This document shows positions 534 to 59,350 of a stretch of DNA of 64,000 bases, in pieces. This DNA is from Cenococcum geophilum (taxonomy: Eukaryota). Position 1 is the stretch's first letter, and the number at the start of each line of letters is the position of its first letter. A program made the translations under genes and the position numbers. The notes beneath the pieces were generated by a model. It saw only the letters and a list, made by a program, of their open reading frames with translations, was not told the DNA's origin and did not search any database. Location of the stretch: contig CP158635.1 in assembly GCA_050273025.1 (NCBI GenBank), positions 17,546,001 through 17,610,000 of the forward strand, written 5' to 3'.

Positions 534-3500
534 AACTAGGCTACACTATTACCCGTTTCGGCTGTTAATTAGGAGCGAATTAAGAAGTTTAGGAGTATAC
601 TATAGGCTAAATATATAGAGACGTGCAGTCGTTGTAAGGAGTAGTGGTTTTAAATGGCCTAGCTATGGAGGAAAACAATATAGGTGTATATAAAGCCTGC
701 GTTAAGGACGCTAATAGCCTTAAGAATCTAACCTTTTTTCCCCTATTTAGTAAAAGTAATAGGCTTAATCTAGGGCCTATTCCTAGCTTTCTACCTATAC
801 TTACCGCGGTAGAGGAGCTTCTAATCGCGTGCGTATACATTTATCTACAAGTCGTGCGTATACGCGGCTAGCAACACTACTATACTGGCTACGTTTACTG
901 CTTTAGCTAGAATATACTAAAGACTTAGAGGTAGCTACTACGGCTACCTATTAAACTTAATATACTGGTCGTAAAGCCTATAGTAGTAGAGGGTAGCAAA
1001 TACCTAAGTTGGCGGTTTACCAAGTGGTATACTATAAGGCGCTCTACTATAGTATAGTAGCTTTACTTTCTAAAGGTCAATTATCCTAATTATTGCGACG
1101 TTAAAATATATAGCACCTAGCTTACTAGCTTACCTAAAAATAGCTCTATATTAGATTAGCTACCTTATATTAATAAGTTAGAGTCTAATTCTAGTAGCCT
1201 AATAGCTTACCCTACTACTTTTATATAATATCCTTCTACTATTAATCCTCTACCTACTAAGCTTAGTAGTAATATACTAGACAGCAAATTTAATAATAAT
1301 GTACTAGATATTTTAGTTCCTAATCTAGTGCCTAACCTTAATAAATTAGAGCTTTTAGGTCGCGAGGTTTAATACTAATAAGACCTATAAGCGGGCCTAG
1401 AGGTTTCTACTGTGCAATAAATACCTCTCTCTAAGCGATTAGCTAGTTTTATTATACGCGGCGCCTTTTCTACCCTATTTCCTTATAGTAAAGCAGATTT
1501 TAATATACTATAAAGCCGTACGGTTACCCTAGCTGCGTACGCTAAGTATATGCTTAAGTATTAGGACAGTCGGTTTAGCCACTACCCCTTATTTCGCTAC
1601 TATATGTTTAATCGGATTATAAAAGAGCAAGCCCTTAACGCTACCCACTTCCTTTATAGCTAATTAGATAAAAATAGCCTATTTTTAAATAAGCCTAGTA
1701 ATCTTATAAATGGTAGTAGGGGTAACTAGGTTCTAAATAAGATTATACGGTATATATAGAAGCTTAAGGGTACTAGGCCTTACTAGAAGTAGAAAAGAAA
1801 TAAGCTTATAGCTTATACTAAGAATATTAAGAGCGGGTCTCTATTCTTTACACTTAGCGCTACTAATCTATATTGGTATAATCTACACTCTTATATGCCT
1901 TGATTTAACGAATATAAGGCTACTAATAAGGCTTAGCGCTACCGGATTGCTTCTTAGAATCTTAATAATAACCCATATATTACTGCTTACTAGCTATATC
2001 GCCGCTTTAATCTATTTAGGAAGCACGTGCTTATAGGTCTATTTAATGGCACTAACTTTTAGTCCTAATATAAGTGGTAGATATAAGGTAGTGGCTATAT
2101 ATATATAGCTTCTTATGGAGTTTAACAGCCCTAGAGCCAGATCCGTTAGCTAGTGTATTAAGGGCGGCTTTTACTAAGTACTGGGCTACTTTTATATCTA
2201 TAGTAAATCCTAATTAATCTAGGCCTCCTAATCTTTGATATCCTTCTACTTTTAGCTATAAAGAACAGCTTAATACTAGTAAGCTTTTTACTGCCTACCC
2301 TAATTGATTTTAATAGCACTGCAATTACACCGAATCTTACTGCTTAAGATTAAAGAAAGGCTCTACTAGAGTAAAGTAGTGCCGCTTTTACTTTCCACGC
2401 TCTCTCCGTAATAAGGCCGCTGTATTAAAGGATTAAAATCCATATTACTAGACGTTCTATCTATAGTGTAATAATAAGCTTCTTAATAGTTATAATACAG
2501 CTATAATATTAGTGTGGATGGCGAATATTAATATATTACCCACTATAAGCATATTAGTAATAGTTAACTATATAAGCAAATATTGCAGCAAGAAAGAGAA
2601 GAAGTTAACTTCCTACTAGGAGCTACTCTAATTAGTATAGCCGTATACTAACAGCCTTTATACCTTTAGTTTAGTAGTAGCTAGGTTTATAAATAAGCTT
2701 ATTACTAAACGTAATTAGTTGGCACAGAAGGTATGCTATTTACTTTTTAATATTCCCCTTTACAAAGGCTCTAGGAATATAGTAACTTTAAATTACCCCT
2801 AGGAGGATAATTAAAGCGCTATATATAAGCTTAAGGATAGCTAATTAGGAGGGTATAGACTATCTAACTATAAGAAATATAAGCGCCGCCTAGATGGGGT
2901 AGAAGACGTTACTTTCTTTAATTTCCTACTCTATTTTAATTACTCTACTTATAAGCGTCGGCTAAGAGCAAAGCCTTAAGTTATATTATACTTTCCGCGA
3001 TATAAAGGCAATTCTTCCTATTTATAGTATTCTAAGTTCTACTATATAAAGCTTATTCTTTATTATCTATAAAGGGAGTATAAGAAAATAACTACTTATA
3101 CTAATGGATTTGGGGCCCCTAATTATATAGCTTCCTATTAGGCTTGCGTTAACTCTTATTAATACCCGCTTAACTACTATAACCAAAAACTAGATAAAGC
3201 TTATAAAACTACTAATAATATTAATAAGTTTAAGGGCGATTTTGTAGACGACTTAAAGCTATATTAGTCCTTTAAGGCCCTATATACCCGCGTTTAAAAT
3301 ACCAATAAAGTTAAAATTAAGGATCCTAATAGGCTTGGTAATAGGGAGCTTAATTATAACTACGACTAGAGCACGCATTAGGGTACATACCCGTAGCTTA
3401 ATAAGAGAACTTATTAGTAGAAAGTATGGCTACAGCCTCTACTATAGAGCCGCCTATCCTAAATAGCAACTCCATCCTCTTTATAACCAGGTTAGCGTTA

Positions 3501-4239
3501 TATCTATAATATTATAGTTAATTACTACAGGCAGATCTAAGTGGGCCTTAGCCCCCCTACTATAGATTAACGTTAATAGAGAGGCAGGAACCAGTAAATT
3601 ATATCTTATTGCTGTTTTGTCTACTACGCTCTATAATATAGCTATATCTAATAATAAGCCGTCGCTATTAGTTTAAGCTGCCCCTACTAAAGTAGCTGCC
3701 TTTAATATTAACGGTAAAACTACGTACAAATTATTAAGGTTACCAGTGAATCGCCCCTTTAAGGAATTACCTACTGCCAGTCTTACGCCTCTATAATAAG
3801 CTTTTAAGGATATTTACTATCTTATCCTTAATAAGAAATCTATAATCGGGCAAGTATATCTAGCCTAGATTAATCGCTACCTCTATTAGATCTACCCTAC
3901 GCGTAACAACAACTACTTTAGAGGCTTAAACACCTTGCTAGTAGGCGATTTCTATTAGCTTCCCCCTATAGGTCAGGCGGCCTTATATAGTAATCTATCT
4001 ACTAGGCCGTTAGAGCTCGCTAGCTATAGAAAGGGAGCCTATAAGGCGATTAACCGAACTACTATCCTAGATTAATTTATATAGTAGGGCGGTAATAACG
4101 CTAAGAGCTCTATATTTAGGACCGCCCTCGTAGAGCTACGTAGTAATTCTATAAGTAATTTAACCTAGAAGCTTTTTTTAACTAGGTATAAGCAGGGCCT
4201 ATCTACTAATAAGGTTGTAGGCTTTAATAACGCAATTCG

Positions 4240-4497
4240 TGTAAGGCAGTATTGCTAGGGTGTACGGTAGGGAGCAGGCAAGCCGAGCATGAGTCACATA
4301 GGGAGTCGATGGAAGAGGACGATATGGTAATGAGGGTAGGCAATAGCCTCGTACTGAGACGAACCGATGAGGAGGGAAGGGCTGCAAGCCCGAGGTGCTT
4401 ATAAGGAGGTGCCAAGGGCTAGCCGAAGGCTAGCCTTGGCGACCCCTAAGAGCCCCTAGGCGATGCAGCCGAGTAAGGGACCAAAAGTACCCTTACA
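4240..4497. mobile_element. Solo LTR (258 bp) inserted in the Helitron helicase
   Basis: TGTAAGG...CCTTACA termini; 5-bp TSD ATTCG (4235-4239, 4498-4502); near-identical copy at 54214-54474. Confidence 0.95.
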
Positions 4498-6300
4498 ATT
4501 CGGCTATATAGCACACGCGCTGCTATAGGTAAGTATAATACTATTCGGCTTCGCGATCTTTTACAGCCAGTGGTAGCTATTAAGTTAGTTAACACTAGTG
4601 TAGGTATGCGGAAAGTTACTCCTAATTAGTGCAATACTATAGAGAATCTAGCCCTATATATTAGCGCGAAAGTAATACTAATATAGAATATCTAGGTTAA
4701 ATTAGGCTTAGTAAATGGTACTACTAATATAGTTAAAGATATTATATAGAAGGGACACGCGGATATTAAAGAGGATCAGCCTTAGTTACTACTAGTTACG
4801 GTAGATAGGTATAATGGACTTACCCTATTTACTTGGCAGGATAGTAAGAAGGTCGTCCCTATATTTTCTATACTTTATAAGTAGGAGGGTATAAAAGGCT
4901 CTTGCTTATAGCGTTAATTTCTAATTACTTTAGCTTTTACTCTTACTATATATAAAAGCTAGGGCCTAATACTTAACTAGATAGTTCTAGATGTTAAGGA
5001 AAAGAATAAGACAGCTAGGCTAACCTATATAGCAATCTTACGAGTTAAGAAGCTTTTAGGGCTTATATTTAAACGTAGGTTTAATATAAAATAATTTTAA
5101 TTATCTATAAGTAAGACTAAAGAGGTATAATAAGAAGATTTTACATGGAGGCAGCAGTAACTACTTATAAACGACTTTTCCTAATTAGGAAATTATATAC
5201 TAGCTTAGAGGTAAGCAGAGAATACGGCATTCGTCTTAATTTCCTAACTTTTAAATAGCTTAACTACAAAATCTAATTTTCTAAATTTTAACCCCCCTAT
5301 CCATCCTACCTTCTTACCGCTTTTAAAGCTATTAGATATACATATAATAGTATATAAGGAGAATTAGCAGTACTACCGGATTAATATTACTACTATCTAT
5401 AGCGTTAATTAATTTTTAGAATTTTTATATTTTTTTTAAAGGGCGGAAATATCGCTTATATAAGAAGTTATATAACCTTTAAGAATACTTAGGACCGCAT
5501 ATTAGCAGCCACGACTTCTCTATACTACGGTTAAGATTTTATATATACTGTACCTAGAGCTACTTATAATAACTATTACTTATAGATCTACCAATTTACA
5601 AATAAAAATTAGACGTGGTTAGAGCTATTAGTAGGGGTTATTAATCGCGCTCCCTATAACAAAATTTTGGATTTTAGTAATCTAAACTAACAAATTAAAT
5701 TAAAAGTTTAGAACGTCTAAATAAGGTTCTACTAAGACGCTAAATAGACCCTAACCTAGACCCTTCCTAACCTGTTAAATTCTAAAAATAACAACCTCTA
5801 TTAAATTAAAAATTAACCTTATCCTTAATAAGCCATCCAATTAGATTTAATAGTTCTTTATTATTTAAGACACAGCTAAAATTAATAAGGTATAGTAGTA
5901 TATTAACCCATTTAGGGGGAAAGACGATCTTCTAAAGCTAGAACTACTAAGTCGGCCTACACTAAAGGATATACTACCTACGGCTATATTAATAGCAAGG
6001 CTGGACCTAAACCAGCTTACTACCTATAAATAGCTCTACGCCAAATATAAGGACGATTTACGCGTACACTAGAAGCAAAAATAGGCTATAAACGATATTA
6101 ATAACTATATCATTTACACTACATTGGTAGCCTACCTTTTACTTATTAACAGCCTTAGTGGTTAGTTACATTAAATATTTAAGGCGTCTCTACTACTATA
6201 GTAGCCACTGCAGTAATAGAGACACCCTATATTTTAGTAAGTAATTAAGCCCATCTTATACGAGAATCTCGTGCTATTAGTACTTACCAAATCACGTACT

Positions 6301-6766
6301 TATAGGGCCTCCTCCCGTCTATAAATACTCTCTCCTTTACACCTTCCTTTCTTCTTTTCTTCTTCCCTATAAGAGCTAGAGGCGCTCTAATACCCCTTCC
6401 TAGTCTCTATTAAGGGATCTATTAGTTAATATAGCGATATAGATAGCATTAGACGAGGAGACGGGTAAGAGAGAAGATAGGAAAAACGGAGGGGCATCTA
6501 GTAGGTGTTAGTTAAGCAATATTAATGTCTATATTATAGCTGCCTAATCTCCCGTTTATAGGCCTCCTCCTATTTATAAATACTTCCTCCTCTATACCTT
6601 CCTCTCTTCTTTTTCTTCTTCCTTATAAGAGCTAGAGGCGCTTTAATACTCCTCTCTAGTCTCTATTAAGGGATTTATTAGTTAATATAGCGATATAAAT
6701 AGCATTAAATAAGGAGATAGGTAAAAGAGGAACCTCTAGTAGGTGTTAGTTAAGCAACATTAATAG
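6301..6766. repeat. Degenerate direct duplication of ~210-225 bp (6301-6527 and 6557-6766)
   Basis: Both units run ggcctcctcc...ataagagctagaggcgct...attagttaatatagcgatat...ctagtaggtgttagttaagcaa. Confidence 0.8.
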
Positions 6767-7079
6767 TAGTTTTTATTACCTAAAAATTGCGTTATATAAT
6801 AATATTTGAGAACGCAAATATATACCCCCGTCCTATACTTATACTACTACTAAATATTTTAAATTTCGTACTTAAAGCTACTTATAATAGGCATTCCTAG
6901 AAAATCTACCAGTTTAAAGCTCTATAATTAAACGTTGTTAATGTTTTATATAGGGGTCGTTAATTAAGCTCCCGGGATACGATTTTTAAAGTTTAACACC
7001 ACACTAATATTACGACCTTCTTGCAGTGGCCGAGCCACCCCTAATCTTCTCCCCCTCCTCCCCCCTCCCATTACTCGGC

Positions 7080-7157: not shown

Positions 7158-7621
7158 ACGTCCGAACTGGGTAAGCAATGACGTAGTTACTTAATTATAT
7201 TAGACGTCTCTATATACAGTTATATCTCTTCCTACACGCGTATTTAATCGAGTTGGGGTAGTAGACTTACTTTAATTCCAGCTATACGGCGATTTAGTTA
7301 TTAGGTATTAAAAATATCTAATATATAAAGCTTTAAATTGGAATTATAATCTACTATATTAGATCCTACGTAGAGGGCTCTATATTAAAGCTCTGCAGTC
7401 CAAATATATACTAAATTTATAACTAATATAATCTTACTACTACTTCTAAATTAAGCAAAAGCTCTATATAGGGGGGTCCTAGGGGGTCTCTCCCTGGAAA
7501 ACCTTATCTCTATATATATTAATTAAAGTCTATATAATAAAGCTCTAAAATTGATTGGCTTATTACTTATAAACTCGGGTTAAAATTTACGTTGGGGGAT
7601 TAACGTTCCGCATGTTTTTTA

Positions 7622-8180: not shown

Positions 8181-9079
8181 TGTTTTAATAGAGGGGGCGA
8201 TGCGCGTCGTGCGGCTTAGCGATTTTTACCGATATTTTAAGAATAGCTGTAGCCTAGAGGCCCTTATTATAGGGAAGGCTTAGGTTAAAAGTATACTTAT
8301 TTATAAACCGTCTCTAGTTATTCCTTACTTCTTTTTTTAGGGTATTCTTTAACTAGTTTCTTATATCTTTATATTATCTCTTATCTTTAAGGTTATAGCT
8401 ACTTATATATTTCCTTCTTACTTATTATTAGCTAGTAATAAAAACCGCGCATTATATAGACCATACATATCACGTATAGGGGCCCAGTTTTAAGACTAGG
8501 CGGTACTCTTTTAGCTTATTTTTAATTACTGCCTAGATCCTTTCTAGTCTATAGTTAATTTCTTTAGGGGTAGCCAATAAGCCTCGCTTGTTTAGTATTA
8601 GGTAGATTTCTTCTATATTTTAAAGTTATTATTTAACTATATTAAGGAAACTATTTATCTTAAGCTTCCTTATTATATATCTTTTACTACTTAGTTATGC
8701 CTTAATATCTAAATCTAGCTATATTTAAATAGGGATATAGTCTAAGGCGAGTGCTTATTCTTCTTTAGGGTTATACCTTTTAAGTCTCTAGTATAGGCCT
8801 TTATCTATAAATATAAGGTTAATTATACTTTTAGCAGTGCCTTATTGCCATATAATTGCTCCTAGGGGGGTAGCTAGCTTAAGGCCCCAGATATCTATAG
8901 CTCTTAGTAGGCACTCTACCTATTATTTAGCAGCGATATAGATACCCCCCTACCGTGGGTAGTAGAGGTTTATATCTCCTAATAGGATAAACTCTATACC
9001 TACGGTTTTTAGTAAACTTATTACTAATATAATGTTCTCTATTTATAGGACCCCTTTAATTCTAAGGTTATATATATTA

Positions 9080-10103
9080 GTAGTAACTCTTTAATTAACG
9101 TCTAATACGGATCCTATCTGGCCCACGCAGACTACTCCGTCACAGGGGGAAAACTTATTATAATTTATAGGAAGAAAACCCTGCAGTTGGGTTGGGGGAG
9201 GAAAAACCCTATAAGCCACCTCAGTAGGATAAAAAACCCCAATTTGCCATGTCCGTCCGTAGCGGCGGCCCTATGGGCCTATAACTACATCCTGTCCTCC
9301 TTGGATGTTCGAACTCCTTAGGAACCACTGCTTCCTTCTCTAGCTTATCCCAGCTAGGGTTCACTACGTCCCAGCTAGGCCTTGCCAATTAATTGCTGTG
9401 TTGTTATTGTTTCCCATATCTTGGCCATCCCCTATGTGCTATCTCTTATTTAACTATTGCCATATACACCATGCCTCCCCCCCCTAGGGCCTATTGAAGG
9501 CGTAAGGGGGATCCATCTATTAACTACCGTAATACTAAGGCGAGCGGGATATATTGTATGCTTTGGGTATCTTTTATGCCTAGGCCCCAGCTAGGCCCTT
9601 TCTAAGGGTTACCACTCCGTTAAAAGAAGACAAGGAAAACCATAGGTCGTAATCTAGGCTGCCAGGTAGCACCCAATAGTTAATAGCGAGTGACCGCATG
9701 CTCCGCGGGCGATCGCCCTGGGGGCTAGGAGGGGCCGTATATTTGCTCGTTACTCAGTCGCATTCGCTCGTTCGTTGATATAAGAGGTCGTTAATGCTTT
9801 CTATTGGGGGTCGGGGGATGCTATCGAATGCTGTGCATCCATGTTGGATCGTATAGGTGTCTTCTAATAGGAGAATAGTAGTGCAGTAGCTGCTATCGTA
9901 AGGGGGTACCAACAGTAGTAGTTTTCGAGATCTTACCATCCCATGTGAAAACTTTTCACCACCGCCCATACTACTCGCAACCACCACCACCATGTCGTAT
10001 CGCACGCTGTGCGACGTCTCTGCGTTGGCTCTGGGTCTGAACTTTAAAGACCTAGGTTCGTAGCCGTCACCACGTATAGGTGCAGAGTCCGTTTTCGACG
10101 GCC
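9080..10103 (-). mobile_element. Non-autonomous ~1-kb retroposon (SINE/SIDE-like), copy 1
   Basis: 15-bp TSD AGGTTATATATATTA (9065-9079, 10104-10118); 3' tail ...GACGTTAATTAAAGAGTTACTAC; homologous over its whole length to 58334-59322; no credible ORF. Confidence 0.9.
10018..10103 (-). ncRNA. HDV-like self-cleaving ribozyme (predicted) at retroposon 5' end
   Basis: P1 GGCCGUC/GACGGCU with G1-U wobble; P2 CUCUGC/GCAGAG; P3 ACC/GGU; 7-nt L3 UAUACGU; P4 CUAGGUC/GACCCAG; J4/2 CCAAC. G1 abuts the TSD. Confidence 0.8.
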
Positions 10104-12031
10104 AGGTTATATATATTAATAACTTATACTAGTCCCCTATATATTTAGATTATTATTACTATAATATCTAGGTTAACTACCTACTATAACTATAAAAATA
10201 GGCTAATAGCCTTACTAATCATAAAGTATACACGTATGGCTACTTTTAGTTTATATAGGAGCTGGAATCCTTAGGGGCAGTATATTAATTATATATAGGT
10301 ATTATAATACAGCTCTTATATAGTAAGGATGTAGTATTTCTCTAGGTCTAAACTGTCTAGTAAAAGCCTTATAAGACGGTGGTTTGTATTGCTATAGTTA
10401 TACTATATAATAGATAGGTGGCGGATCCCTAGCGTAGGTCCTTTATCTCTCCTTTATTCCTTACTTTTTTTATTTCTACTTTTTCTAGAATATTTAGAGC
10501 TTTTATCTCTTATATCTATACCCTAGTTACTACTTATTTTATATAGAGCTTTTTATTCCCGTATTTTATATTCCTACTAGCGTTTTTATATCTATATCTA
10601 TTATTATCTCCAGTTTTTCCCCTATTCTTACTAGTCAGCTATATACCCTTTATAGGTTAGCTATAAATATTATATTTGCCGCATTAAGTCTAATTCTTAA
10701 TTATCCTAGTTTTAAGCTTACTATCGCTGTCTATAGGGGTCTTCCTATAGGGCGTCCTCTCCCTTATATCCCTATTTAGTCTAGTAATATTACGCAGCGC
10801 CACTTCTAGCCTATTAAGGCTTAGGATAACTAGCCTAGCCCCTAAGTATTAAAGGTAGGAAACGCTAGGAAGGCACTTACGTCCACTAACTTATTATTTA
10901 TTATTTCTACTAATATATATGTTGCGGTGGGAATGCATCCGTTTTCGGGGGTGTTTGGCCGCCGCTTTTGGCGGCCTTCTTACCTCGCTTAGACCCTCTT
11001 ACCTCGCCGCTTTAAAGAGGCTCTGCTTGCTTAATATACAAGCCACCTTATTATCCTAGAGGGGTCAGAAACAGTCCACTACTGCCTTTAGCAATGCTTA
11101 TTAGCGCTTACGTTAAACCAACTATAGCATAGCCCATAAAGTCGTCTAAGGGCTAGTACCTACTTATAGGAGTAGGCTACTTGCCTACTTTTTACTCCAG
11201 TCCTCTCGCCAACCTTAAACTTACCTATATTCCCTAGTTATACCTCTTCCGCTACAATTTTGTTATTTTATTTAATGCTACTTACTTACCTACCCGTTAG
11301 ACTAGCAGAGCAATATAAAGCTGGCGGTACTATAGTAATCTAAACGTTAGCCCTAGTCCGAAGGATAACAAAAGCGCTAGTTACTAGCGCTATTAATTTA
11401 AAGGCCATATTAAATCGAAACTTGCGCTTACTTCCCTATACAAGCCTAGACCTAGACTTAAATTTAGAATTAAACTCTAATTTAGACTACTTAGATTTAT
11501 ACTTAGACCCTAATACGGAACCTAATATAGATAACAAATTAGATATTAATAAACACCCTAATCTTAAACTGGGTTTAAAAAACCTAAGGTTAGATTCTAA
11601 AGCTAAAGAAATACTAAAGGATATTGCTAAGTTAAGGGATAAAGAGCTAGTGAAACTAAATTATACCTCCTATACTAAGAAACTTTGGAAGAGGAAAGGC
11701 GAGTTCTAAAAGAGGTAAGATTATATTTTCTCCACCTATATATCTTATTACACTCTTTTAATAGTAGGCTTAGGTTTTATTAAAAGATAAAGGCTAATCT
11801 AGAAGACTGTCTTTATAAATATAGCTAGGAGATATATAAAGCATATCTCTATTAGCGTAAAAAACATTTTTAAGTTAAAAAGGAGAGCTTAATACAAAGC
11901 TATTAAAATAAAATATATATATGCTATAGGGATCTTATACACCATAAAATGGACGCCGATATGCTAATAGATGTTAATAATATATATCTTATCCTAATAT
12001 TCCTCTCTCGTAGTTATATACTAATAGCTAC

Positions 12032-15000
12032 TATAAGCTTTGCAGTATGGGTATTGAACAAGCGACTTAATTGTAAATTTATAGAAATTAAGTGATATAA
12101 ATATATAAGGAAGGTGTTAGTAATAAGATAAAAGGGGAGACTACTATATAACTAAAATAGCATGATACGTAAGTAATACGCAGGCGATACGCAGTCGATA
12201 CGCAGGTGATACGTAGGTGTTTTAGCATAGTACCGGTAGTCGGTTACACACCCCCCTAGATTTAACGGTGTAGTTAAAGCTGTAGAAAAATAAAGGTCAA
12301 AACTATACTAAAATAGGAAATTTAGATATAATTTGGGAGTAGTAAAAGAATGGGGTAACTGTAACGGATATTGCTAATATCGCGGATATTGCGAATCAAT
12401 TAATCTGATATCGAATATCCACCAAATTTAACTGCTTTATCTATGCTTCGTGCTTTTAACGAGGTAAGATTTTGGTAAGACCGTCGGTAGGCATTTTGGC
12501 CGTAGGAACTTTTTAAACGTCGATCTTTTATCTTAGACTTCCTATTTTAGCCAGTGCTGATAGACGTTAATATGTCGAAACTTAGTGTCAAGCTTTAGTG
12601 TATTCTGTTTTAGGAGTCGTATAGTCTACATATTATTACAGAGTACGGTAAATTTACGTTCTAAGTTGAAGCCAATTGCCTTAAAGAATCGTTGCCACTA
12701 GATAATCTTAACAGTAGCAGTAGATAGGGAGAGAAGTTCTGCTTTGGTAGTCAAACGAGTTACTAATTATTATAGGGTCGCCTTCTAATTAATTAGCCCT
12801 CTAAATAGTATAAATAGGTATCCCCAAGAGCTCCGTCTAGTCTCTTTATAGTCCGTAAATACTGCGTTAGATACTTCGTAAAAGGTAACGTCTTCTCCTT
12901 TTAGGTTTCTATAATAGATATATACTCTAAATACTTCGCTAAAGTATTTAATAGCTATCGATTTTGTTTTAAGGCAGTAGGCAATAGCTTAGTTTGCCGC
13001 ATTAAAGTGCTTTTAATTTAGATTAGTAAGGAATTCGGCCAGCTTAGAATGCGTCTTAGTAATATTAGGTCTTCTAAATACGGTAAGGTGTATAAGCAAC
13101 CCTACTTATTACTGGTAGGCTAGTGTCCTTTAAGGGTTTATCTACTAGTCGGACGAAATCAGTTCTTTAGTAGGAAGTAGTAACTTAGGAAATCTGCCTG
13201 GTTGAATATTAAATTAATTAGCTATCTTTTTAATATAGGAATCTTGGCAAAGCCAGAGCCTTTAACTTAGTTAATCTCGTTTAATTTAAATTCCTAGGAA
13301 CTACTATAGGTCTCCTAGTATACGGATCTTATATTAGTGTAGTAGTTTAGCTTTAAATTCTTTAAGTCTTTAAAGGTTCTTTTTAGCAAATAGAATAGCA
13401 ATATTGTCTATATAGAAGAAGATAATAAGTTATCCGTTAGTAAATAGGCAGTTAGTGCCTAGTACTAGTTTTAATCTAAATTTAGCTAGGGTACTAGTAA
13501 GCTCTTTATACTAAAGTAGTAGTGAGATTTTTAATTTATATAGCGCTATAAGTAGCTTTAGGATATATCCGTCTTGTTTAAATCCTTCTAGGTAGTAGTA
13601 GTAAACTAGCTTACTAAGCTTGGCGTTTATAAATACATTTACAGCGTTATACTGTTAAATTTCTAAATTAAATGCGGCTGCTATAGCCATGAGTGCACGG
13701 AATATTCGAGCAGCTAGGGTTGCTGTATAGGTCTTTTTTTTAGTAATCTATAGGTCTCCGCGGATATATAGTTAAGCTTTTAGCTTTTAAAGATAACTAT
13801 CGCTGTTAAGCTTATATTTAAAGACCTATTTTAGTAGTAGGATTTGCTCGTTGCTTACTTCTTCTTTTAGTATAATTTTAAATGTCCCTTAGCGTTTTAG
13901 GTTATTGTATTCTTTTTCTATAGCCTTTTAAAAGCTAGTAGTTAAAGAATGCTTTCTTAGTTCTTTAAGGTTTTTTAGTTTAGGAGGAAGATTATTTTAA
14001 TATAGAGATAAGGATCTAGTTTAGTTAATATCCTTTACTAGTCCTGTGGCAAAGCCAGTATAGTAACTAAATAGGGTAGATAGATTGGCTAGTAATACTA
14101 TATACGCTTAACATCGAATTCTTTTTAATCCTTTTGGTAGGATAAGGTCGGCAGAAGGTTTAGCTAAGACTTTATTAGCTTATAGAGCTGTATTTAATGG
14201 TTCTATTAAATTACTTAGCTAGGTAGGACCTATTTTAATTATATCCAAAATATCGTTTTAAAGTCCTCCTAGTATAGTGTTTGTTTCTAGCAGATCTAGA
14301 GATACCATTCTACTAGGAGTTGGTAACTACTTAGTATCCTTTATAGGAGGCTCTACCAAATCATTCGATTTAGGTATAGTTGTTTAATCTACATTTAAGG
14401 TAAGTCTATATAAGATAGATTTATTCTTAGACTTATCCTTAAGAGGCTTTAGTAGACTAATTGTCTATAGAGTGTCCTCTAATGCTTTTCTTAATAGGTA
14501 GTTAATGTTTTAACTCTTAGGGTTATCCCTTGCATTGATAAAATGTGTACTTAGAGCTGTGCTCCGTGCGCACCAATTAGGAAGCTGCATACGCAGGCGG
14601 TCAATCGTTTTGCCAGATAATCTAGGCCTTGAAGGAAGGTAGTGATTCGGGGGCTGGCGGTGGCTTTTTCACGACCTGACTTTTAGAAGTGGGATATTGA
14701 GTAGGCTGTACAAGATCCATGTCACTAGAAATGCAATTACGAACCATTGTGGTGGTGTAATTAATTGATGAAGTACTTGACCTGAGAAAGTTGATGTTCT
14801 TTGATCGCGTGCACGGGCCATATCTCTAAGTACACTATCAATGCAAGGGATAGAACGAGGTCTTATTAAATATAACGTCTCTAGTTTAAATAACCTTGTA
14901 GAGACTTAGAATCTAGATTTAATAGATATTAATTAAATTGTAGCCAACTAGGTGTCTAATTAATATATAAGGAGCTAGCTTATCTCCCTTTTTAACTCAT

Positions 15001-17861
15001 TTATCTAGTATATAGGTCTTGCAACCATATATATATATATAGGTAAGTAATGGCAGCTTACCGTAGGCAATCTCGTACGGAGTTTTTTACCCTAGTTGCT
15101 TATTTGGGGTTTAATTAAGTACGTAGCTAGTAGTAAGGAACGCCTCTAGTTTTAGAGATAGGGGTAAGGAAGCTTCTAGCTGTATAGCCCTAGACCGTTC
15201 TATAAGGGTTTGTTTAGATTATTTAGCTCCGCTATTTTGTTCTTCTATATATAGGGCTTAGTATTTAAAAGTAATGCCTTTATCCACACACTATATTTAT
15301 AGGGTGTCTCCTATCTATCTAAAAGCTCGTTTGTTATCGCTCTAGAAGAAGATAATATCTTAGTAAAATTGTATTTTGGTTAGCCGGTAAGTCTTACAAA
15401 TAGTAGGTAGGATAGTAGCTTTGTCCTTATTCCTGGAGGTGAATATAAAATTGAATTTGGAATACGTGTAATAGAAATGCATAGCGTATCTATCGCCGTT
15501 GTATCTAGGTACTTCGAGGTTAATAATATTAAATACTAGTCGTTTAAATGGTTGAGTAGCTGGATATTTATATTCTTATCTTCAAGAGATCTGCTGCGTG
15601 TGCTTTGCCAATAAGCAAATTTTATATTCAATTTTAAGCGGTGCTCATTTATTGATTAGCTTTTAAGCTCTGCGCTATTAACATACTTAGGAAGCTGCTT
15701 AATAGCGTTAGGTCCTACATGGCTAAGTATTTTTATACCATTTTATAGCTATGGCTCCGACTAGTTTATAGGCTATACGGCTAGGCTAGTACCTCTTAGA
15801 GGTTAAGAATGTTGATTAAGTCAAATCTAGGGAATTTAAAGGCGTAGGCTCTCTGTGCATTAGTGCCTAATAGCCCCCTAGTTGTTTCGCATAGTATACT
15901 ATTTCGCTAGTTGCTAGATAGTATAGCATATTTCGTCCTAAGTTAAAATAGATATCGTTATTAGTAGCTTTTAATAGTGCTACAATATTTACAAACATGG
16001 TGGGTACTAATGCTATATATAATAGCTTTATTTTTAAGCTCCTAGTAGGTGTATTAATAGTAATCGTTACTGTTCCATAAGCTTATATTTTCTTAAAATT
16101 TCCGCTAGCAATTAGGTAGTCGTCTTCTACTACTAGGTATAAGAAGGTAAAGTCTTCTTTATTATTATAGACGTGTGTATCTACGCTAGGGTTAAGTATC
16201 CAGGTATTTTAGAGTTTAAATGGAATTTAACTAGTACTAAACACGGCAGCATAGCTGGTTGGTGCCTTAGACGGTAGGGTTTTAGGATTAAAATTAATTA
16301 TAGATTCTATGTTCTTTTAATTGTTCTCCTTTGCTTCCTATTCTTCTTTTTAAATTCGGTTAACTGCGCGTTTAATTAAGGGTATAGATGAGATCATTTT
16401 ATCTACTTTTTTTTGGATATTTGCCCTTGGTCTCCATCCTTAAGGGCGCTTATGCTCGATAATATAGTAGCAGTCACTAAATCGATGTTTAAGGCCGCAT
16501 ATGCATTCCTTGTGCCTTCTTAAATTTAAATTTAGATTGCTGTTAGAATTAGAATTGCCGTTAGAATCTAAATTGGAATTGTTTTGAAGGGTTGCAAATG
16601 CAGAGCTATTGGCAGTAGAGGTAGAGGATGCTTGCTGCATATGGTAGTGCTCCTTGAATTCCTCGATGAGATTAATAATAGATAGTGCAGCTTCGTCCTT
16701 ATATTCCTTTTAAATAAGGTCTACTTCTAATGCTTCTATAAAACTAGAAGAGATGGATTTAATGGCTTAAATAAAGTTATAGTGTAGCCTAAATCCTTGT
16801 ACATCCGGTAGCTTTAATTGCTCCGCAAGCTTATAGACATTTTGCCAATTGTTTAGCTATTTTTTAATTCTCTGCTTCTTATTGTAGACCTTTAGTGCCG
16901 TGTATTAATTAAGGACGTTATGCTTTCGACCTGATGAGGTAGGGGCTAGTGCAGTCTTTAATGCTTTAAGCCGTTCGTGTACCGTGTTGAGGCCGTTAAT
17001 AAGTAGAAGGTAGGCTACCGATGTGGTGCGGACGATGTAATTGCTGATATCGTTTATAGCCCGTTTTTGCTTCTTGTGTACGCGTAGATTGTCTTTGTAT
17101 TTAGCGTAAAGCTAATTATAGGCAGTGAGCTTGATTTGGTCCAGTTGAGCTATTGATATGGTATTAGGAAGTACGTCCGCTGGTATAGGTCGATGCGGTG
17201 GTTCTAGCTTTGGAAGCTCGTCTTTTGTAGATGGGTCGATGTACTGCTATACCTCGTTAGTTGTGGCTGTGTCTTGGATAATAAAGAACCATTGAATCCA
17301 ATCAGATAGCTGGTTAAGGATAACGTTGATCTTTAATTCGGTAGAGGTCGTCATTTTTAGAATTTGTAGGGTTAGGCAGGGTCCAATTGGTGGCTTAGCG
17401 AAACCCTTATTTTGACGTTCCGAACTCTTAATTTGATTCGTTCGTTTGTTCGTCAGTCGGTACGGTCGTTGACTGGGGTTAATCGTCCGTTCGTTTGATA
17501 GGTGAAGAAGCTTAAGACACTTGCAAAGGTAATAAAAGTAGTGACTTCTTAAATAAGGTAGCAAATTGACTGCTTAACAGATTTTGCAATAGGTAGATTG
17601 ATCTGATTAATTGGTTAGTAGGTAGTGCGATCTGGGCTCATAACTGTAAGCTTTGCAGTGTGGGTATTAAACGAGCGACTTAATTGTAAATCTATGGAAA
17701 TCAAGTAATATAAATATATAAGGAAGGTGTTGGTAATAAGATAAAAGGGGAGACTACTACGTAACTAAAATAGCGTGATACGTAAGTGATACGCAGGCGA
17801 TACGCAGTTGATACGCAGGTGATACGTAGGTGTTTTGGCATAGTACCGGTAGTCGGTTACA
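12032..17861 (-). mobile_element. Full-length Ty1/Copia LTR retrotransposon, RIP-degenerated
   Basis: 217-bp LTRs at 12032-12248 and 17645-17861; TSD GCTAC; PBS-like GTTATGAGCCC (17634-17644); G-rich PPT next to the left LTR; gag zinc knuckle CICGLKHRFSDC (~16500); order gag-PR-IN-RT-RH; RT motif FYIDNI (~13410); RNase H RHINVYQHW and PTDGLTK. Confidence 0.95.
14526..14850. mobile_element. MITE (325 bp) with TA TSD, inserted in the Copia element
   Basis: TIRs TCCCTTGCATTGATA(AAAT)GTGTACTTAGAG / CTCTAAGTACACTATCAATGCAAGGGA; TA at 14524-14525 and 14851-14852; retains CpA/TpG unlike its flanks. Confidence 0.9.
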
Positions 17862-51100: not shown

Positions 51101-52091
51101 TTCTTATAAACCTTCTTAAGACGGATTAACTAAGTAGACGCCATAAGATAAGACTTAAGAGCCCGTTACTAAGCATCGACAGCCTCCTATTCTATATTAT
51201 AAGAACGGCGCAACTCCGCCAGGGCAATAGATAGTTTATTATCTAGCTACGCAGCAGTAAATTAAATATAAGACCCTAAAATAAATTAATTAAGGAACTA
51301 GACAACTATTAAGAGTAATAGGTCGCGTATATTTAGTATTAAAGATAGAGCGAATATTATAAGATAAATAAATATTTGCTCTAGTGCACTTTAAATAAGA
51401 GGACGGTTATTATAAAGATGGGTTTGCTAATATAATATAAACTAACCCCTCTTTTAAACAGCAAGAATATAGAGATAGTATAATCTTACTAAGAGATAAT
51501 ATTGCAGCGATAGTGCGAATACGACAAGCAGTTAAGGAAGAAGAAATTGCTTTAGGTATAATAAGTAATAATATTAACTAAATTAATTAGACGGATATTA
51601 CACCTCTAATAAACAACTTAAAGATATTTAAAATCTTTAAGGATAAAGATAAAGAGGAGAGAGATAGTGTTATGGACGCTTTAAGTATAATATTACGACT
51701 ACTTAGAGAGGAGTTAGAAGAAGCTAGTTAGTTAATATAAGCATAGTCTAAGATGGAGCCAATAGAGTTATATAATAAGGAATAGTAGCTAAGGTTATAT
51801 AACGTGATCTATATAATCTATAGGATCTATATAATCCGCAATAGAGTAGATAGAGTATACGTATATTATATATAAAAAGGATTTTATAGGAGTACGGTTG
51901 TGTATTTAAAGACCCTTAATCCCTACCTAGATAGTTCCTTCCTTATAGTAATTCTTAGAATACAATTAGAGTTAATCTATTAGGCAACTACTCCACCAGT
52001 TATTATTACGTTATTAACTTTAATTTGCATTACCTATACACCTAGCCTAATAACGAGCCCACTGTAGTTCTTGCTATAAGATTCCGTTACA
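36181..52091 (+). mobile_element. Ty3/Gypsy chromovirus-type LTR retrotransposon A, interrupted by copy B
   Basis: 424-bp LTRs at 36181-36604 and 51668-52091; TSD TATAA; gag knuckle (NCGKxGYYARD); protease ALIDS (~39720); RT YLNDIII; RNase H, integrase and chromodomain (YKVKW); PPT before the 3' LTR. Confidence 0.95.
39763..47700 (+). mobile_element. Ty3/Gypsy element B, same family, nested in the protease region of A
   Basis: 406-bp LTRs at 39763-40168 and 47295-47700; TSD AGTAG; LIDSGATRNYI; RT YLDDIII (~44250); chromodomain YKVKW (~46450); PPT GAGGAGGGAGATGG. Confidence 0.95.
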
Positions 52092-58330: not shown

Positions 58331-58333
58331 TTT

Positions 58334-58413
58334 GGCCGTTAAAAACGGACTCTGCACCTATATGTGGTGACGGCTACGAACTTAAGTCTTTTAGACTTAG
58401 AGCCAACGCAGAG
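58334..58413 (+). ncRNA. HDV-like ribozyme (predicted), copy 2
   Basis: P1 GGCCGUU/GACGGCU; P2 CUCUGC/GCAGAG; P3 ACC/GGU; L3 UAUAUGU; shorter P4 UAAGUCU-UUU-AGACUUA; J4/2 CCAAC. Confidence 0.75.
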
Positions 58414-59322
58414 ACGTTATACAGCGTGCGATACGACCTAGTGGTAGTGGTTATGAGTATTATGGGCGGTGGTGAAAAGTTTTTACATAGGATAGTGAGA
58501 TCTCGAAAACCACCACTAAGTGCCCCTTATAATAATAGCAACACTATTCTCCTATTAAGGCACCTGTACGATCCAACATAGATGCATGGCACTCAATAGC
58601 ATCCCCCAACCCCCAGTAGAAAGCATCGACGACCTCCTATTGACGAACGAGCTATTGCGAACGGACGAGCAACAAGCAAATATACGGCCCCTCCTAACCC
58701 CTAGGGCGATCGCCCGCGGAGCATACAGTCACTCGCCATCAACTATCGAATACCAGAAAAGACCTAGCAGCTTAAACGACACCGTACGGTTTTCCTGTCT
58801 CCTCTTAAGGAGTGGTAACCCTTGGCGAGGGCCTAGTAACTAGGGCCTAGGCATAAAAGATACCTAGGTATACACGTCCCGCTCGCCTCATAGTATAGTG
58901 TAGTAGTAGTTTATAGATGAATCCCCCTTACGCCTTCGATAGGCCTTAGGGGGGGGAAGGCATGGCGTATATAGCAATGGTTAAACAAGAGATAGCATAT
59001 AGGGGATGGCTAAGATATGGGAAACAGTAGTATAGCAATCAATCAACTAGTAAGGACTGTATGTCCTAGTAAAGAAAGCAGTGGTTCCTAAGGAGTTCGA
59101 ACATCTAAGGAGGATAGGACGTAGCCGTAGGCCCGCAGGGCCGCCGCTATAGACGGACATGGCAAACCGGGGTTTTCTATCCTACTGAGGTGGCTCATAG
59201 GGTTTTTCCTCCCCCAACTGCAGGGTTTTCTTCCTGTAAATTACAAGTTTTCCCCCTGTGATGGAGTAGTCTGCGTAGGCCTAGATAGGATCTATATTAG
59301 ACGTTAATTAAAGATCTACTAC
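58334..59322 (+). mobile_element. Non-autonomous ~1-kb retroposon, copy 2
   Basis: 14-bp TSD TATTATATTAATTT (58319-58332, 59323-59336) with one extra T at 58333; tail ...GACGTTAATTAAAGATCTACTAC; reverse-complement homolog of 9080-10103. Confidence 0.9.
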
Positions 59323-59350
59323 TATTATATTAATTTAATAAGTATAAATA

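Follow-up and report, generated by a model that had tools for sequence, protein, structure and literature searches.

HDV-like ribozymes at the 5' end of an element explain how promoter-less retroposons can obtain a defined RNA from the read-through transcripts of their host, and the non-LTR examples named in the part of PMC6765202 available to us belong to metazoans and trypanosomatids. In the R2 SIDEs and R2/R1 hybrid SIDEs of Drosophila, as the available passages of Eickbush & Eickbush 2012 (PMC3414825) describe them, the ribozyme makes the precise 5' end of the element, and the hybrid SIDEs are flanked by 14-bp target-site duplications (TSDs). In trypanosomatids, Pr77 is described in the accessible parts of three papers (PMC3185411, PMC3383444, PMC4035085) as the first ~77 nt of both an autonomous LINE and its non-autonomous derivative, an HDV-like ribozyme that defines the RNA's 5' end. 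The variant HDV ribozymes of fungi amount, in the portion of Li & Breaker 2017 at hand (PMC5640933), to 230 representatives from 26 species, and their "widely variable gene associations" are noted there; the same source presents HDV-like ribozymes as sharing little sequence and as found mostly with structure descriptors, and the word "retrotransposon" does not occur in its main text.

The locus reported here lies in Cenococcum geophilum, in a stretch of 64,000 nucleotides (contig CP158635.1, positions 17,546,001 to 17,610,000), the whole of which we call the window. We think it probable that the locus belongs to a family of transcribed, SINE-like, non-autonomous and non-coding non-LTR retroposons of ~1.0 kb, residing in a RIP-active ascomycete and headed by a predicted HDV-like 5' ribozyme module. 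Elements headed in this way are known from animals and trypanosomes and have apparently not yet been described for fungi; our search of the open-access literature returned no description of an HDV-like ribozyme heading a fungal retroposon.

Copy 1 of the element is on the minus strand and runs from 10103 to 9080, so that the RNA numbering used below is 10104 minus the coordinate. A first-pass annotation had outlined it at 9065..10118; all the sequence features that it named are present, but it had left the strand unstated. The perfect 15-bp TSD, aggttatatatatta on the plus strand, adjoins the 5' end of the element at 10104..10118, and the identical 15-mer adjoins the 3' end at 9065..9079. From the 5' end, and on the minus strand, RNA nt 1-86 make up the HDV-like ribozyme module (10018..10103), in which G1 at 10103 is the nucleotide predicted to follow the cleavage site directly. 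The module is followed by the retroposon body (nt 87 to ~1016; 9088..10017), non-coding by the ORF, Pfam and frame-conservation checks, and by the short (CTA)n/(TAC)n tail, which reads GTTACTAC from 9087 to 9080 and is followed by a TA that it has in common with the TSD. The element has neither terminal repeats nor terminal inverted repeats. Copy 2 is found on the plus strand at 58334..59324 (blastn, 80.06% identity over 1048 columns); it is more RIP-mutated than copy 1, has lost 6 nt of its P4 loop, ends with the tail CTACTACTA, and is flanked by a 13-bp TSD, ATTATATTAATTT, at 58320-58332 and 59324-59336, with an extra T (58333) preceding G1.

A metagenome scan in which copies were selected with a 24-nt pattern at nt 87-110 revealed at least 122 further loci, which together with the window copies bear out the proposal of a multi-copy, non-coding, TSD-flanked and microsatellite-tailed retroposon family. 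Among the matches listed, 120 of the 127 pattern matches possess the 5' head, and the seven headless ones either end at contig ends (six) or diverge upstream of ~nt 29 (one, L100). The 5' end itself is uniform: among the matches listed, the element starts with the same G in all 118 copies with upstream DNA, none extends 5' of this G, and the information content jumps from at most 0.41 bits at -1 to 1.83 bits at +1. In the same way, 21 DNA contigs of run X1 leave the element at exactly 10103 to enter unlike, AT-rich sequence, with a consensus agreement of 0.48. A TSD of at least 12 nt abuts G1 in 43 of the 47 full-length copies among the matches listed, with a mode of 14, when one mismatch is allowed and the overlap with the tail is included; the duplications of these matches span 12-18 bp and vary in sequence. 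Insertion takes place at a W-rich motif ~14 nt upstream of the 5' end, and the flanks of the 118 copies among the matches listed are diverse, AT-rich and mutually unrelated, with no R2-SIDE-like site-specific insertion in 28S rDNA. The tails, among the matches listed, are (TAC)1-4, and (TTA)n in the copies carrying RIP-type mutations.

As the first-pass annotation had claimed, the first 86 nt of copy 1 (10103 to 10018) can form the nested double pseudoknot composed of P1, P2, P3, L3, P4 and J4/2, and the G with which the element begins is the nucleotide predicted to lie at the cleavage site of a well-formed HDV-like fold. The 5' strand of P1 (nt 1-7, GGCCGUC; 10097..10103, minus strand) makes 7 bp with nt 36-42 (10062-10068), including a G1.U42 wobble. 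Among the matches listed, this helix (helix 1) is 98.3% paired over 92 distinct copies, and its base is G1.U42 in 88 of the 92 and A:U in three. P2 joins nt 17-22 (CUCUGC; 10082..10087, minus strand) to nt 81-86 (10018-10023) by 6 bp and is 98.2% paired among the matches listed (helix 2), with both sides changed in 2 of its 6 pairs. P3 pairs nt 23-25 with nt 33-35 (3 bp; 10069..10081, minus strand), is 98.6% paired among the matches listed (helix 3), and encloses the 7-nt L3 (nt 26-32), which reads UAUACGU in copy 1 and UGUACGU in the majority of the family matches listed. P4 is a hairpin of nt 49-56 with nt 66-73 closed by a 9-nt loop (10031..10055, minus strand) that carries an A51.C71 mismatch in copy 1; it is 95.8% paired among the matches listed (helix 5), its columns 53:71 hold 49 AU, 28 GU and 15 GC pairs and no unpaired case in the same set, and a subfamily with an 8-nt deletion of the P4 loop retains a 6-bp stem. 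In J4/2 (CCAAC, nt 76-80; 10024..10028, minus strand), C76 and C77 keep their identity in at least 90%, and A78 and A79 in all, of 114 copies among the matches listed. C76 (10028) stands at the position of the catalytic cytosine; by its likeness to C75, the catalytic cytosine of HDV, we infer that it would play this part.

Over the 26 pairs of the model, 96.5% of the pair cells are paired in the 114 copies among the matches listed, against 28.9-41.3% with slid partners, and the observed paired share, the count of both-side-changed cells and the covariation score were each reached by none of 500 shuffles. According to the covariation check the helices are maintained, and P4 and P2 show some compensatory change. 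Covariation is thin: both-side change is confined to 5 of the 26 pairs, a measure on which 145 of the 500 shuffles match, and RIP-type transitions, of which the pair changes consist, may imitate compensation. The nested MFE fold of a majority-type copy (L063) contains P2 and P4 and reaches -31.4 kcal/mol (z = -2.15), which is weak support since such a fold cannot model the pseudoknot. The ribozyme is also the least diverged part of the element, with 0.1% transversions and 4.4% transitions versus 0.9-7.8% and 5.2-13.9% in the other 11 element windows, with the reservation that the selection of copies by a pattern at nt 87-110 may lower the apparent divergence nearby.

The P1.1 mini-helix between L3 and J1/4 is present, and its pair identities are non-canonical, not two C-G. 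The J1/4 nucleotides 43-44 (AC; 10060..10061, minus strand) are the partners of L3 nt 28 and 27 (10076 and 10077), and in copy 1 U28:A43 is intact while G27:C44 is lost (A27). U28 and A43 had been regarded as RIP products of a canonical C-G pair. They are indeed U and A in TpA contexts, but both are invariant in 114 of 114 copies among the matches listed, which makes U:A the native pair of the family and not a RIP derivative. Among the 92 distinct copies of the matches listed, U28:A43 occurs in all 92, whereas the second P1.1 pair is G27:C44 in 59 and A.C in 29. The base hit by RIP is G27, an A in both window copies, which retain the U:A pair alone. In the RNA of X15, 386849 of 386978 depth units at position 10077 are C (that is, G27), as are 1173 of 1179 reads of X24.

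HDV-like ribozymes have little sequence in common and are for the most part recognised with structure descriptors. The search with HDV-like models gave a divided result: the curated Rfam models remained below threshold, whereas an HDV-topology descriptor, written after inspection of the sequence, fits at nt 1 in 63 of 114 copies among the matches listed. Rfam returned no gathering-level match in the window and no match of RF00094 or RF00622 at E <= 10 in 8800-10400; RF02682 (HDV-F-prausnitzii) aligns exactly from 10103 to 10018, at 15.1 bits for a gathering threshold of 44 and E = 9.4. The descriptor fitted at nt 1 in none of 20,000 dinucleotide shuffles of the ribozyme; in its strict form it found one start in 408,000 nt of shuffled element, and in its loose form it reported six further starts over 128 kb of the window sequence. 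RIP-type changes keep both window copies from passing the strict form. The covariance model R1, built from the family, scores copy 1 at 115.4 bits and copy 2 at 97.1 bits and, with filters off, recovers these two copies only in the window, the next best hit having 10 bits and E 1.1. A ribozyme core pattern had no match in the viral contigs and none in the genome contigs.

The element, at ~1 kb, has no coding capacity for a reverse transcriptase of its own. The longest stop-to-stop frame in the body of copy 1 measures 124 aa and enters from the flank, the longest consensus ORF measures 94 aa, and no Pfam family was found in the element, whether in ORF translations or in the six of six copies read through with X. 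Rfam detected no tRNA, 5S or 7SL similarity at E <= 10 in 8800-10400, and the canonical pol III SINE head is absent; the family is SINE-like in behaviour, but without a tRNA, 5S or 7SL head. The search for a LINE partner in the window and in ~250 kb of flanks was negative. The Pfam search covered 133 window ORFs, read-through translations of 38.6-51.2, 0.8-6.8 and 13.6-19.6 kb, and 72 of the 152 flank ORFs of at least 90 aa, ORFs inside SINE copies being dropped; it yielded no LINE domains on window and flanks and, instead, remnants of Gypsy, Copia, Helitron and DDE_3 as well as host genes. Two short RVT_1 fragments in the flanks carry no class assignment (L055:2-304 and L075:672-980). A blastn search of the ribozyme and the last 120 nt against the window and the at least 122 loci gave no copy detached from the SINE body, four "orphan" tail matches being located in a palindromic contig behind L022/L023, and of the 11 places outside SINE copies that a regex search for (TAC)3 tails picked out, none is a convincing LINE end.

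The element is transcribed strand-specifically, from the sense strand, and its RNA is confined to the element (X24, X15). The raw reads of X24 have depth 0 in all flank bins, and inside the element the first mate has a depth of 27-2980 on the plus strand versus 4-89 on the minus; in the X15 metatranscriptome the depths sum to 5e4-1.1e6 within the element and to 0-77 in the flanks. The DNA runs have greater depth in the flanks than within the element. The X24 molecules have their ends concentrated at 10093 (223 of depth 1059) and 10094 (308 of 1021), that is at nt 10-11, 9-10 nt inside G1 and not at nt 1, a position compatible with self-cleavage without being specific for it. The extreme 5' end has probably been lost in library making, and soft clipping could also create such ends, since 10397 of the 12310 X24 reads fit only partly. 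No uncleaved precursor was seen in these data, in which no reads span G1 into shared upstream sequence.

The mechanism that we propose combines self-cleavage with target-primed reverse transcription. Transcripts entering the element from upstream, or starting at a promoter of its own, would fold co-transcriptionally, and the cytosine at nt 76 would act as general acid/base as C75 does in HDV. The RNA would cut itself immediately 5' of G1, leaving a 5'-OH G1 and discarding the upstream host sequence. The reverse transcriptase of a LINE would recognise the 3' end with its (UAC)n tail, prime on the nicked TA-rich target and copy the RNA to its very end, as a result of which the new copies would start at G1, flush with the TSD. 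Once inserted, the copies would accumulate C>T and G>A changes of RIP type and so decay, as the two window copies have: G27 is lost from both, and copy 1 carries the A.C mismatch in P4.

The uniform 5' end could also be produced by transcription initiating at G1 from an internal promoter located in the first ~80 nt of a real retroposon, the HDV-like fold then being inactive or serving RNA stability, the structure of the reverse transcription template or translation; in a mixed form, the module would be promoter and ribozyme at once, as reported for Pr77/L1TcRz. A promoter of its own easily explains a very abundant RNA sharply bounded by the element and the lack of reads crossing G1, and the first 77 nt of L1Tc/NARTc are, in the available part of PMC3383444, both an internal promoter and an HDV-like ribozyme. 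A promoter, however, needs no nested double pseudoknot of 26 bp with G1.U and a C-N-A-A in J4/2, which fits at nt 1 in none of the 20,000 shuffles and is kept in 96.5% of the pair cells; P4 pairing survives an 8-nt deletion and changes from G:C to A:U, and tRNA, 5S and 7SL similarity is missing from 8800-10400. We therefore hold initiation at G1 to be unlikely. The same conserved module might appear at the end of an ordinary repeat by chance resemblance, the repeat being possibly MITE-like or segmental and not a retroposon. The absence of a significant Rfam match and the six additional starts of the loose descriptor would agree with this, but the fit falls exactly at nt 1 of the best-conserved part of the element, the strict descriptor tolerates one start per 408 kb of shuffles, and a retroposon is indicated by the variable sequence of the TSDs, the microsatellite tail, the lack of terminal inverted repeats and the strand specificity of the RNA, so that we give chance hardly any credence.

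The coding evidence bears on another reading, that of an internally deleted LINE (SIDE-type) with a functional or recently functional ORF of ~200 codons, starting in or just after the ribozyme and translated in a cap-independent way. Sense frame 3 of the majority consensus has 5 stops in its first 230 codons, where frames 1 and 2 have 15 and 12, a de-RIP-style consensus stays open for 204 codons, and the frame of window copy 1 has just 5 stops in 205 codons. De-RIPing, however, removes stops by construction, and, averaged over the natural copies, frame 3 contains 9.1 stops and the other sense frames 10.8 and 11.2. Nor is the frame conserved, since L044, L015 and L009 use a different frame in the middle part from L036 and window copy 1; the Pfam search of the six copies read through with X was empty, and the only two database proteins of greater length are fusions that read through from the flank into the element. 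Such an ORF is, in our opinion, quite improbable, and a non-coding retroposon headed by a predicted ribozyme remains our preferred reading.

Going further, and as a tentative proposal that we ourselves consider doubtful, this may be the first fungal retroposon family on record to owe its 5' end to an HDV-like ribozyme, with a module selected in the source copies and a P1.1 of G:C plus U:A. The module might double as a promoter or as a translation or stability element, and the ~1-kb RNA would then rank among the most abundant non-coding transcripts that the host makes; by extension, the hundreds of "orphan" HDV-class ribozymes of ascomycetes, known from variable gene neighbourhoods, might be the heads of such retroposons. 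The family would extend the mechanism to a third eukaryotic lineage and give a concrete, testable function to the fungal HDV-class ribozymes, whose role is left open in the available text of PMC5640933. Its assembled copies number more than 100, its expression is strong and strand-specific and its 5' boundary is clean; it would also provide a natural series of RIP-mutated ribozyme variants usable for structure-function work, and it gives a name to an abundant repeat that protein-based classifiers of transposable elements cannot place.

Compared with the known systems, the family resembles the R2 SIDEs and R2/R1 hybrid SIDEs of Drosophila in being short, non-autonomous and provided with a 5' HDV-like ribozyme, predicted in our family, to which the SIDEs add a 3' end used by the LINE TPRT machinery (Eickbush & Eickbush 2012, PMC3414825). 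In the available passages of that paper, the SIDEs are site-specific in rRNA genes, rare and visibly derived from known R2 or R1 parents, whereas the present family is dispersed at TA-rich sites over at least 122 loci, measures ~1 kb and bears a (TAC)n tail. With L1Tc/NARTc it shares an HDV-like ribozyme as 5' head, abundant transcripts and dispersed elements, according to the accessible parts of PMC3185411, PMC3383444 and PMC4035085; in these texts the same 77 nt of the trypanosomatids also hold a proven internal promoter and the elements are released from polycistronic transcripts, and our family differs from them by its fungal host, its tail and its target. Like the fungal variant HDV ribozymes, the module is of predicted HDV class and present in many copies in a filamentous ascomycete (PMC5640933). 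As far as that source is available, the variants usually show a C-G pair where cleavage occurs, an E-loop in place of part of P4 and one extra nucleotide between P2 and P3, and the motifs of our family do not appear in it, which says little. The family module is unlike these variants in having G1.U, a regular 8-bp P4 and no P2-P3 spacer, and thereby follows the general HDV consensus. It shares its overall topology with the CPEB3 and genomic HDV ribozymes: the CPEB3 ribozyme has, like the family, a 7-nt L3 that starts with U and carries C-G at positions 5-6, and the C-N-A-A of J4/2 follows the G closing P4 as it does around C75 of HDV. The P1.1 of G:C plus U:A contrasts with the two C-G pairs of CPEB3 and HDV, and there is no detectable sequence homology (no RF00094 or RF00622 match at E <= 10). 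Finally, the family has in common with canonical SINEs a non-autonomous, non-coding and presumably LINE-dependent nature, TSDs and a simple-repeat tail, and stands apart from them by a length of ~1 kb, above their usual range, by a head without similarity to small RNAs or pol III genes and by the ribozyme-type module that occupies its 5' end.

The reading best supported by our analysis is that of a non-autonomous non-LTR retroposon whose RNA would be trimmed at its 5' end by a putative HDV-like ribozyme. The RNA would arise either by read-through transcription or from a promoter of the element's own; the enzyme of a partner LINE would then copy it after priming at a TA-rich nick, and the copying would run to the very first RNA nucleotide.

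Copy 1, placed by the first-pass annotation at 9065-10118, is bounded by the perfect 15-bp target-site duplication (TSD) claimed there, aggttatatatatta, present as an identical direct repeat at 9065-9079 and 10104-10118. The coordinates stand, and the strand, which had been left unstated, must be minus. The 1,024 nt between the repeats have 46% G+C, and the TA-rich surroundings 33-36%. The element starts with the G at 10103 (GGCCGUCG...), and RNA positions of copy 1 are numbered as nt = 10104 minus the coordinate; the 3' end reads ...GTTACTAC at 9087-9080, the following TA being common to the tail and the repeat. By blastn, copy 1 has one further match in the window, copy 2, on the plus strand from 58334 to 59322 (1,048 columns at 80.06%), with the 13-bp TSD ATTATATTAATTT at 58320-58332 and 59324-59336, the 3' end CTACTACTA and an extra single T before the first G.

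The non-coding nature attributed to copy 1 is borne out, the longest overlapping stop-to-stop frame being of 124 aa and entering from the flank. Sense frame 3 is poor in stops over nt 3-615 (9487-10101, minus strand), with 5 stops in 205 codons of copy 1 and none in 204 codons of a de-RIP-style consensus; this scarcity is probably compositional. A protein-coding gene in the element is unlikely: six copies read through with X contain no Pfam family, the frame varies among copies, and the sole two longer proteins in a large protein collection are fusions entering the element from flanking DNA. In P0002, a 281-aa "hypothetical protein" on a 36.5-kb contig, an unrelated coding region continues without a break into a SINE copy, over roughly its first 100 nt (...WPSKTDSAPVRGDGYEP...), so that an insertion of this family can end up annotated as the 3' end of a gene. 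The element is no canonical SINE of the pol III kind, since Rfam detects no tRNA, 5S or 7SL similarity in 8800-10400.

The first 86 nt of copy 1 had been proposed to fold as an HDV-like ribozyme, and the order and nesting of the helices are indeed those of such a ribozyme. P1 pairs nt 1-7 with 36-42 and includes G1.U42; P2 pairs nt 17-22 with 81-86 and P3 nt 23-25 with 33-35; L3 is UAUACGU; P4 pairs nt 49-56 with 66-73 with the single mismatch A51.C71, and J4/2 reads C76-C77-A-A-C80. At the gathering score, Rfam gives zero matches across the whole window. At permissive thresholds a single ribozyme model is matched, RF02682 for the F. prausnitzii HDV ribozyme, with 15.1 bits where the gathering score is 44 (E = 9.4). 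Its positions 1-74 align to precisely 10103 to 10018 of copy 1; this sub-threshold match is by itself no evidence. A small CCG(N7)CGG hairpin is possible at nt 3-15 (10089-10101, minus strand), where it uses part of the 5' strand of P1, and is present in the nested MFE fold. It could compete with P1, by analogy with the alternative folds of other ribozymes.

Metagenome contigs were scanned for the family with a 24-nt pattern from nt 87-110, outside the ribozyme, which matched at least 122 loci, or at least 127 pattern matches with the window. The 5' head is present in 120 of the 127 matches listed; six of the other seven end at a contig edge, and the last (L100) diverges upstream of ~nt 29. 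The 5' boundary was examined in 118 copies among the matches listed, all with at least 20 nt of upstream DNA, the duplicate locus L023 being left out. In these, the information content rises from 0.05-0.41 bits at -8 to -1 to 1.83 bits at +1 and amounts to 1.5-2.0 bits per position beyond; this jump shows that none of the 118 listed copies has shared sequence 5' of the G, which would have spoken against the ribozyme. The common 5' end is backed independently by the DNA run X1, in which 21 contigs end exactly behind 10103 and continue into dissimilar AT-rich sequence (agreement 0.48).

At -14 to -9 from G1, the same 118 listed copies carry a W-only motif with hardly any G or C, a hexamer of roughly TATWTA (~10112-10117 in copy 1) with T or A in at least 95% of them. 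Most TSDs among the matches listed start with TA, and the motif is the start of the TSD, hence a preferred nick site; the hexamer suggests either that the endonuclease has a preference or that the (TAC)n tail provides microhomology. A TSD of at least 12 nt, flush with G1, is found in 43 of the 47 full-length copies among the matches listed, with one mismatch tolerated and the tail overlap included in the length. Of the remaining four, one has just 6 nt and three have no detected TSD: L071, and L012 and L016, which are mis-called copies with an alignment of merely 50-57%. Tails among the matches listed are (TAC)1-4, with (TTA)n in heavily mutated copies. The family, its ends, its TSDs, its tail and its target motif are in this way observed directly. 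Transitions make up 3,983 of the 5,730 differences from the majority consensus among the matches listed (G>A 1,244, C>T 1,159), a count that includes the misaligned L012 and L016, and this is the pattern of RIP. On one 5.6-kb contig (L022/L023) and at L103, two 5'-part copies in facing orientation form an almost perfect inverted repeat, interrupted here and there by 1-nt indels; these look like fold-back artefacts of older metagenome assemblies rather than biology.

The fold, which begins at nt 1, is conserved across the family, as direct inspection of the ribozyme alignment reveals. This alignment holds 114 segments, namely the 118 listed copies minus four from the palindromic, error-ridden contigs of L022 and L103, and pairing was computed on its 92 distinct rows, among the matches listed. 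Across the 26 pairs of P1, P1.1, P2, P3 and P4, 96.5% of cells are paired, against 28.9-41.3% when the 3' partners are slid by 1-3 columns. In none of 500 column shuffles is the paired share, the number of two-sided changes (37 cells) or the covariation score as high as observed; when pairs or pair types are counted instead, 145 and 159 of the 500 do as well. Family covariation is thus real but thin, as expected of a family that is young and has diverged mostly through RIP after insertion. It is clearest in P4 columns 53:71 (A:U 49, G:U 28, G:C 15, zero unpaired), and the adjoining columns 52:72 carry A.C in 29 rows, resembling random G>A damage. The P4 stem is kept in subfamilies lacking 8 nt or 6 nt of the P4 loop, and the extra A of one subfamily sits in the unpaired J1/2.

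In the case of P1.1, the bases U28 and A43 are as the first-pass annotation had them, but the RIP origin it ascribed to them from a C-G pair does not hold: they are invariant in 114/114 listed copies, and since no listed copy shows the original C or G, expected in some if RIP had acted, U28:A43 is the family's own pair. The RIP-affected position in both window copies is nt 27, for which the family majority is G27; among the matches listed, G27:C44 is paired in 59 of 92 distinct rows and A.C stands in 29. In expressed RNA, position 10077 shows T>C (that is, G27) in 1,173 of 1,179 reads of the raw RNA-seq run X24 and in 386,849 of 386,978 depth units of the metatranscriptome X15. As judged from these sequences, the intact module has a 2-bp P1.1, G27:C44 and U28:A43, at the positions of HDV C21:G39 and C22:G38. 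The majority L3 is UGUACGU, its first nucleotide being U and its fifth and sixth C-G, and the 3' side of P4 is followed in the majority sequence by A-G-C76-C-A-A; these contexts resemble those of HDV U20/G25 and G-G-C75-G-A-A. Over nt 1-86, 45 full-length copies among the matches listed show 4.4% transitions and 0.1% transversions relative to the consensus, against 5.2-13.9% and 0.9-7.8% in the next eleven 86-nt segments of the same copies. This suggests that source copies need an intact 5' module, with the caveat that the copies had been chosen by the pattern at nt 87-110.

The chance expectation was estimated with an HDV-topology descriptor comprising a 7-bp P1 with G1.U, a 3-bp P3, an L3 of 6-9 nt, at least one Watson-Crick P1.1 pair, a P2 of 5-6 bp at 0-1 nt from P3, a P4 of at least 5 bp and a J4/2 C-N-R-A, the strict form adding that L3 starts with U and contains CG. 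This descriptor, composed after the element sequence was known, matches at nt 1 in 63 (strict) and 67 (loose) of the 114 listed copies. Neither window copy passes the strict form, by our reading through the P4 mismatch in copy 1 and C30>U in L3 in copy 2; the loose form finds copy 2 and misses copy 1. Dinucleotide-shuffled full element gave one strict and seven loose starts in 408,000 nt, and 20,000 shuffles of the 86 nt gave no match at nt 1. The loose form has six other starts in 128 kb of the real window, and therefore the strict form alone discriminates. R1, a covariance model made from the family with P2, P3 and P4 as pairs, recovers only copies 1 and 2 in the window (115.4 and 97.1 bits; next best 10 bits).

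A word index of public runs returned 24 runs from 13 studies, comprising DNA runs of two organisms, two soil metagenomes, six small metatranscriptomes and one raw RNA-read run; part of the element occurs in 20 of the 24, and four runs were mapped to 8800-10400. Element-bounded, strand-specific RNA is observed directly. In X24 the depth is 0 in all bins outside 9070-10149, and inside the element the first mate lies on the plus strand at a depth of 27-2,980 per bin, the opposite direction having 4-89. In the usual stranded protocols a first mate on the plus strand denotes minus-strand RNA, and the X24 RNA, assuming such a protocol, represents the sense strand of the element. Summed contig depth in X15 reaches 5e4-1.1e6 across the element against 0-77 on the flanks. 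In the DNA runs X1 and X5 it is the flanks that are deeper, so carried-over DNA does not explain the RNA signal. Molecule ends cluster at RNA nt 11 and 10, with 223 of depth 1,059 at 10093 and 308 of 1,021 at 10094. From the general behaviour of such libraries we infer that the RNA has a defined 5' terminus at G1 or close to it, and that the last ~10 nt were lost in second-strand synthesis; clipping could contribute to the cluster, because 10,397 of 12,310 mapped reads fit only partly. The main rival explanation is an internal promoter initiating at G1, possibly alongside the ribozyme as in L1Tc, for which the text of PMC3383444 available to us describes a promoter and a ribozyme combined.

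As for the partner LINE on which the ribozyme-trimmed retroposon would depend, Pfam finds no autonomous LINE in the window ORFs and read-through translations, and the flanks of the 122 listed loci contain, besides host genes, two RVT_1 pieces, both short. No detached ribozyme or tail without the SINE body is found by blastn in the window and these loci, and the ribozyme core pattern has zero matches in viral and prokaryotic contigs. The window is a patchwork of decayed transposons, and its reverse-transcriptase remnants are of the Gypsy type: two heavily RIP-mutated polyprotein remnants, tandem or nested, at 38591-51192 (plus strand), with protease, RVT_1, RNase H, integrase zinc finger and SH3_Tf2-1; one frame has 249 stops in 2,200 codons. 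At 841-6842 (plus strand) lies what remains of a Helitron, also RIP-mutated (Helitron_like_N, E 2e-12; PIF1 helicase; DUF6570), and at 13602-19603 (minus), 18352-18597 (plus) and 55543-55719 (minus) are Copia-type pol remnants (SH3_retrovirus, Pol_BBD) together with fragments of DUF3435 and of a DDE_3 transposase. The sole clear host gene noticed in the window is a 307-aa open frame with a HET (heterokaryon incompatibility) domain (E 1.6e-30) at 33160-34080 (minus strand), in a GC-richer island at 32-35 kb; a gene of this type indicates a filamentous ascomycete. A (TAC)3 run followed by an identical 25 nt at 7434-7470 (plus strand) and in the unrelated locus L028 (2878-2913, plus strand) is another shared repeat family, and a weak SNORA12-like match in the AT-rich flank at 10220-10323 (plus strand; 16.7 bits against a gathering score of 45, E 1.8) is most likely due to chance.

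HDV-like ribozymes are established at the 5' ends of R2, RTE, baggins, L1Tc and non-autonomous derivatives in the available portions of PMC6765202, PMC3414825, PMC3185411 and PMC4035085, and the hosts named in the corresponding part of the review are metazoans and trypanosomes (PMC6765202). In fungi, 230 variant representatives of HDV-class ribozymes from 26 species, and 11 more conforming to the general consensus, have been described, with cleavage confirmed for two; the word "retrotransposon" does not occur in the portion of that text available to us (PMC5640933). The fungal variants, as presented there, have a cleavage-site C-G pair, a P4 with an E-loop and one additional nucleotide separating P2 from P3, and the module described here differs in all three (PMC5640933). 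We found no report in the open-access papers searched linking an HDV-like ribozyme to a fungal retroposon. In its proposed working the element is like R2 SIDE and NARTc, and it would bring this R2 SIDE/NARTc-like working into a new host lineage, with an unusual yet paired P1.1.
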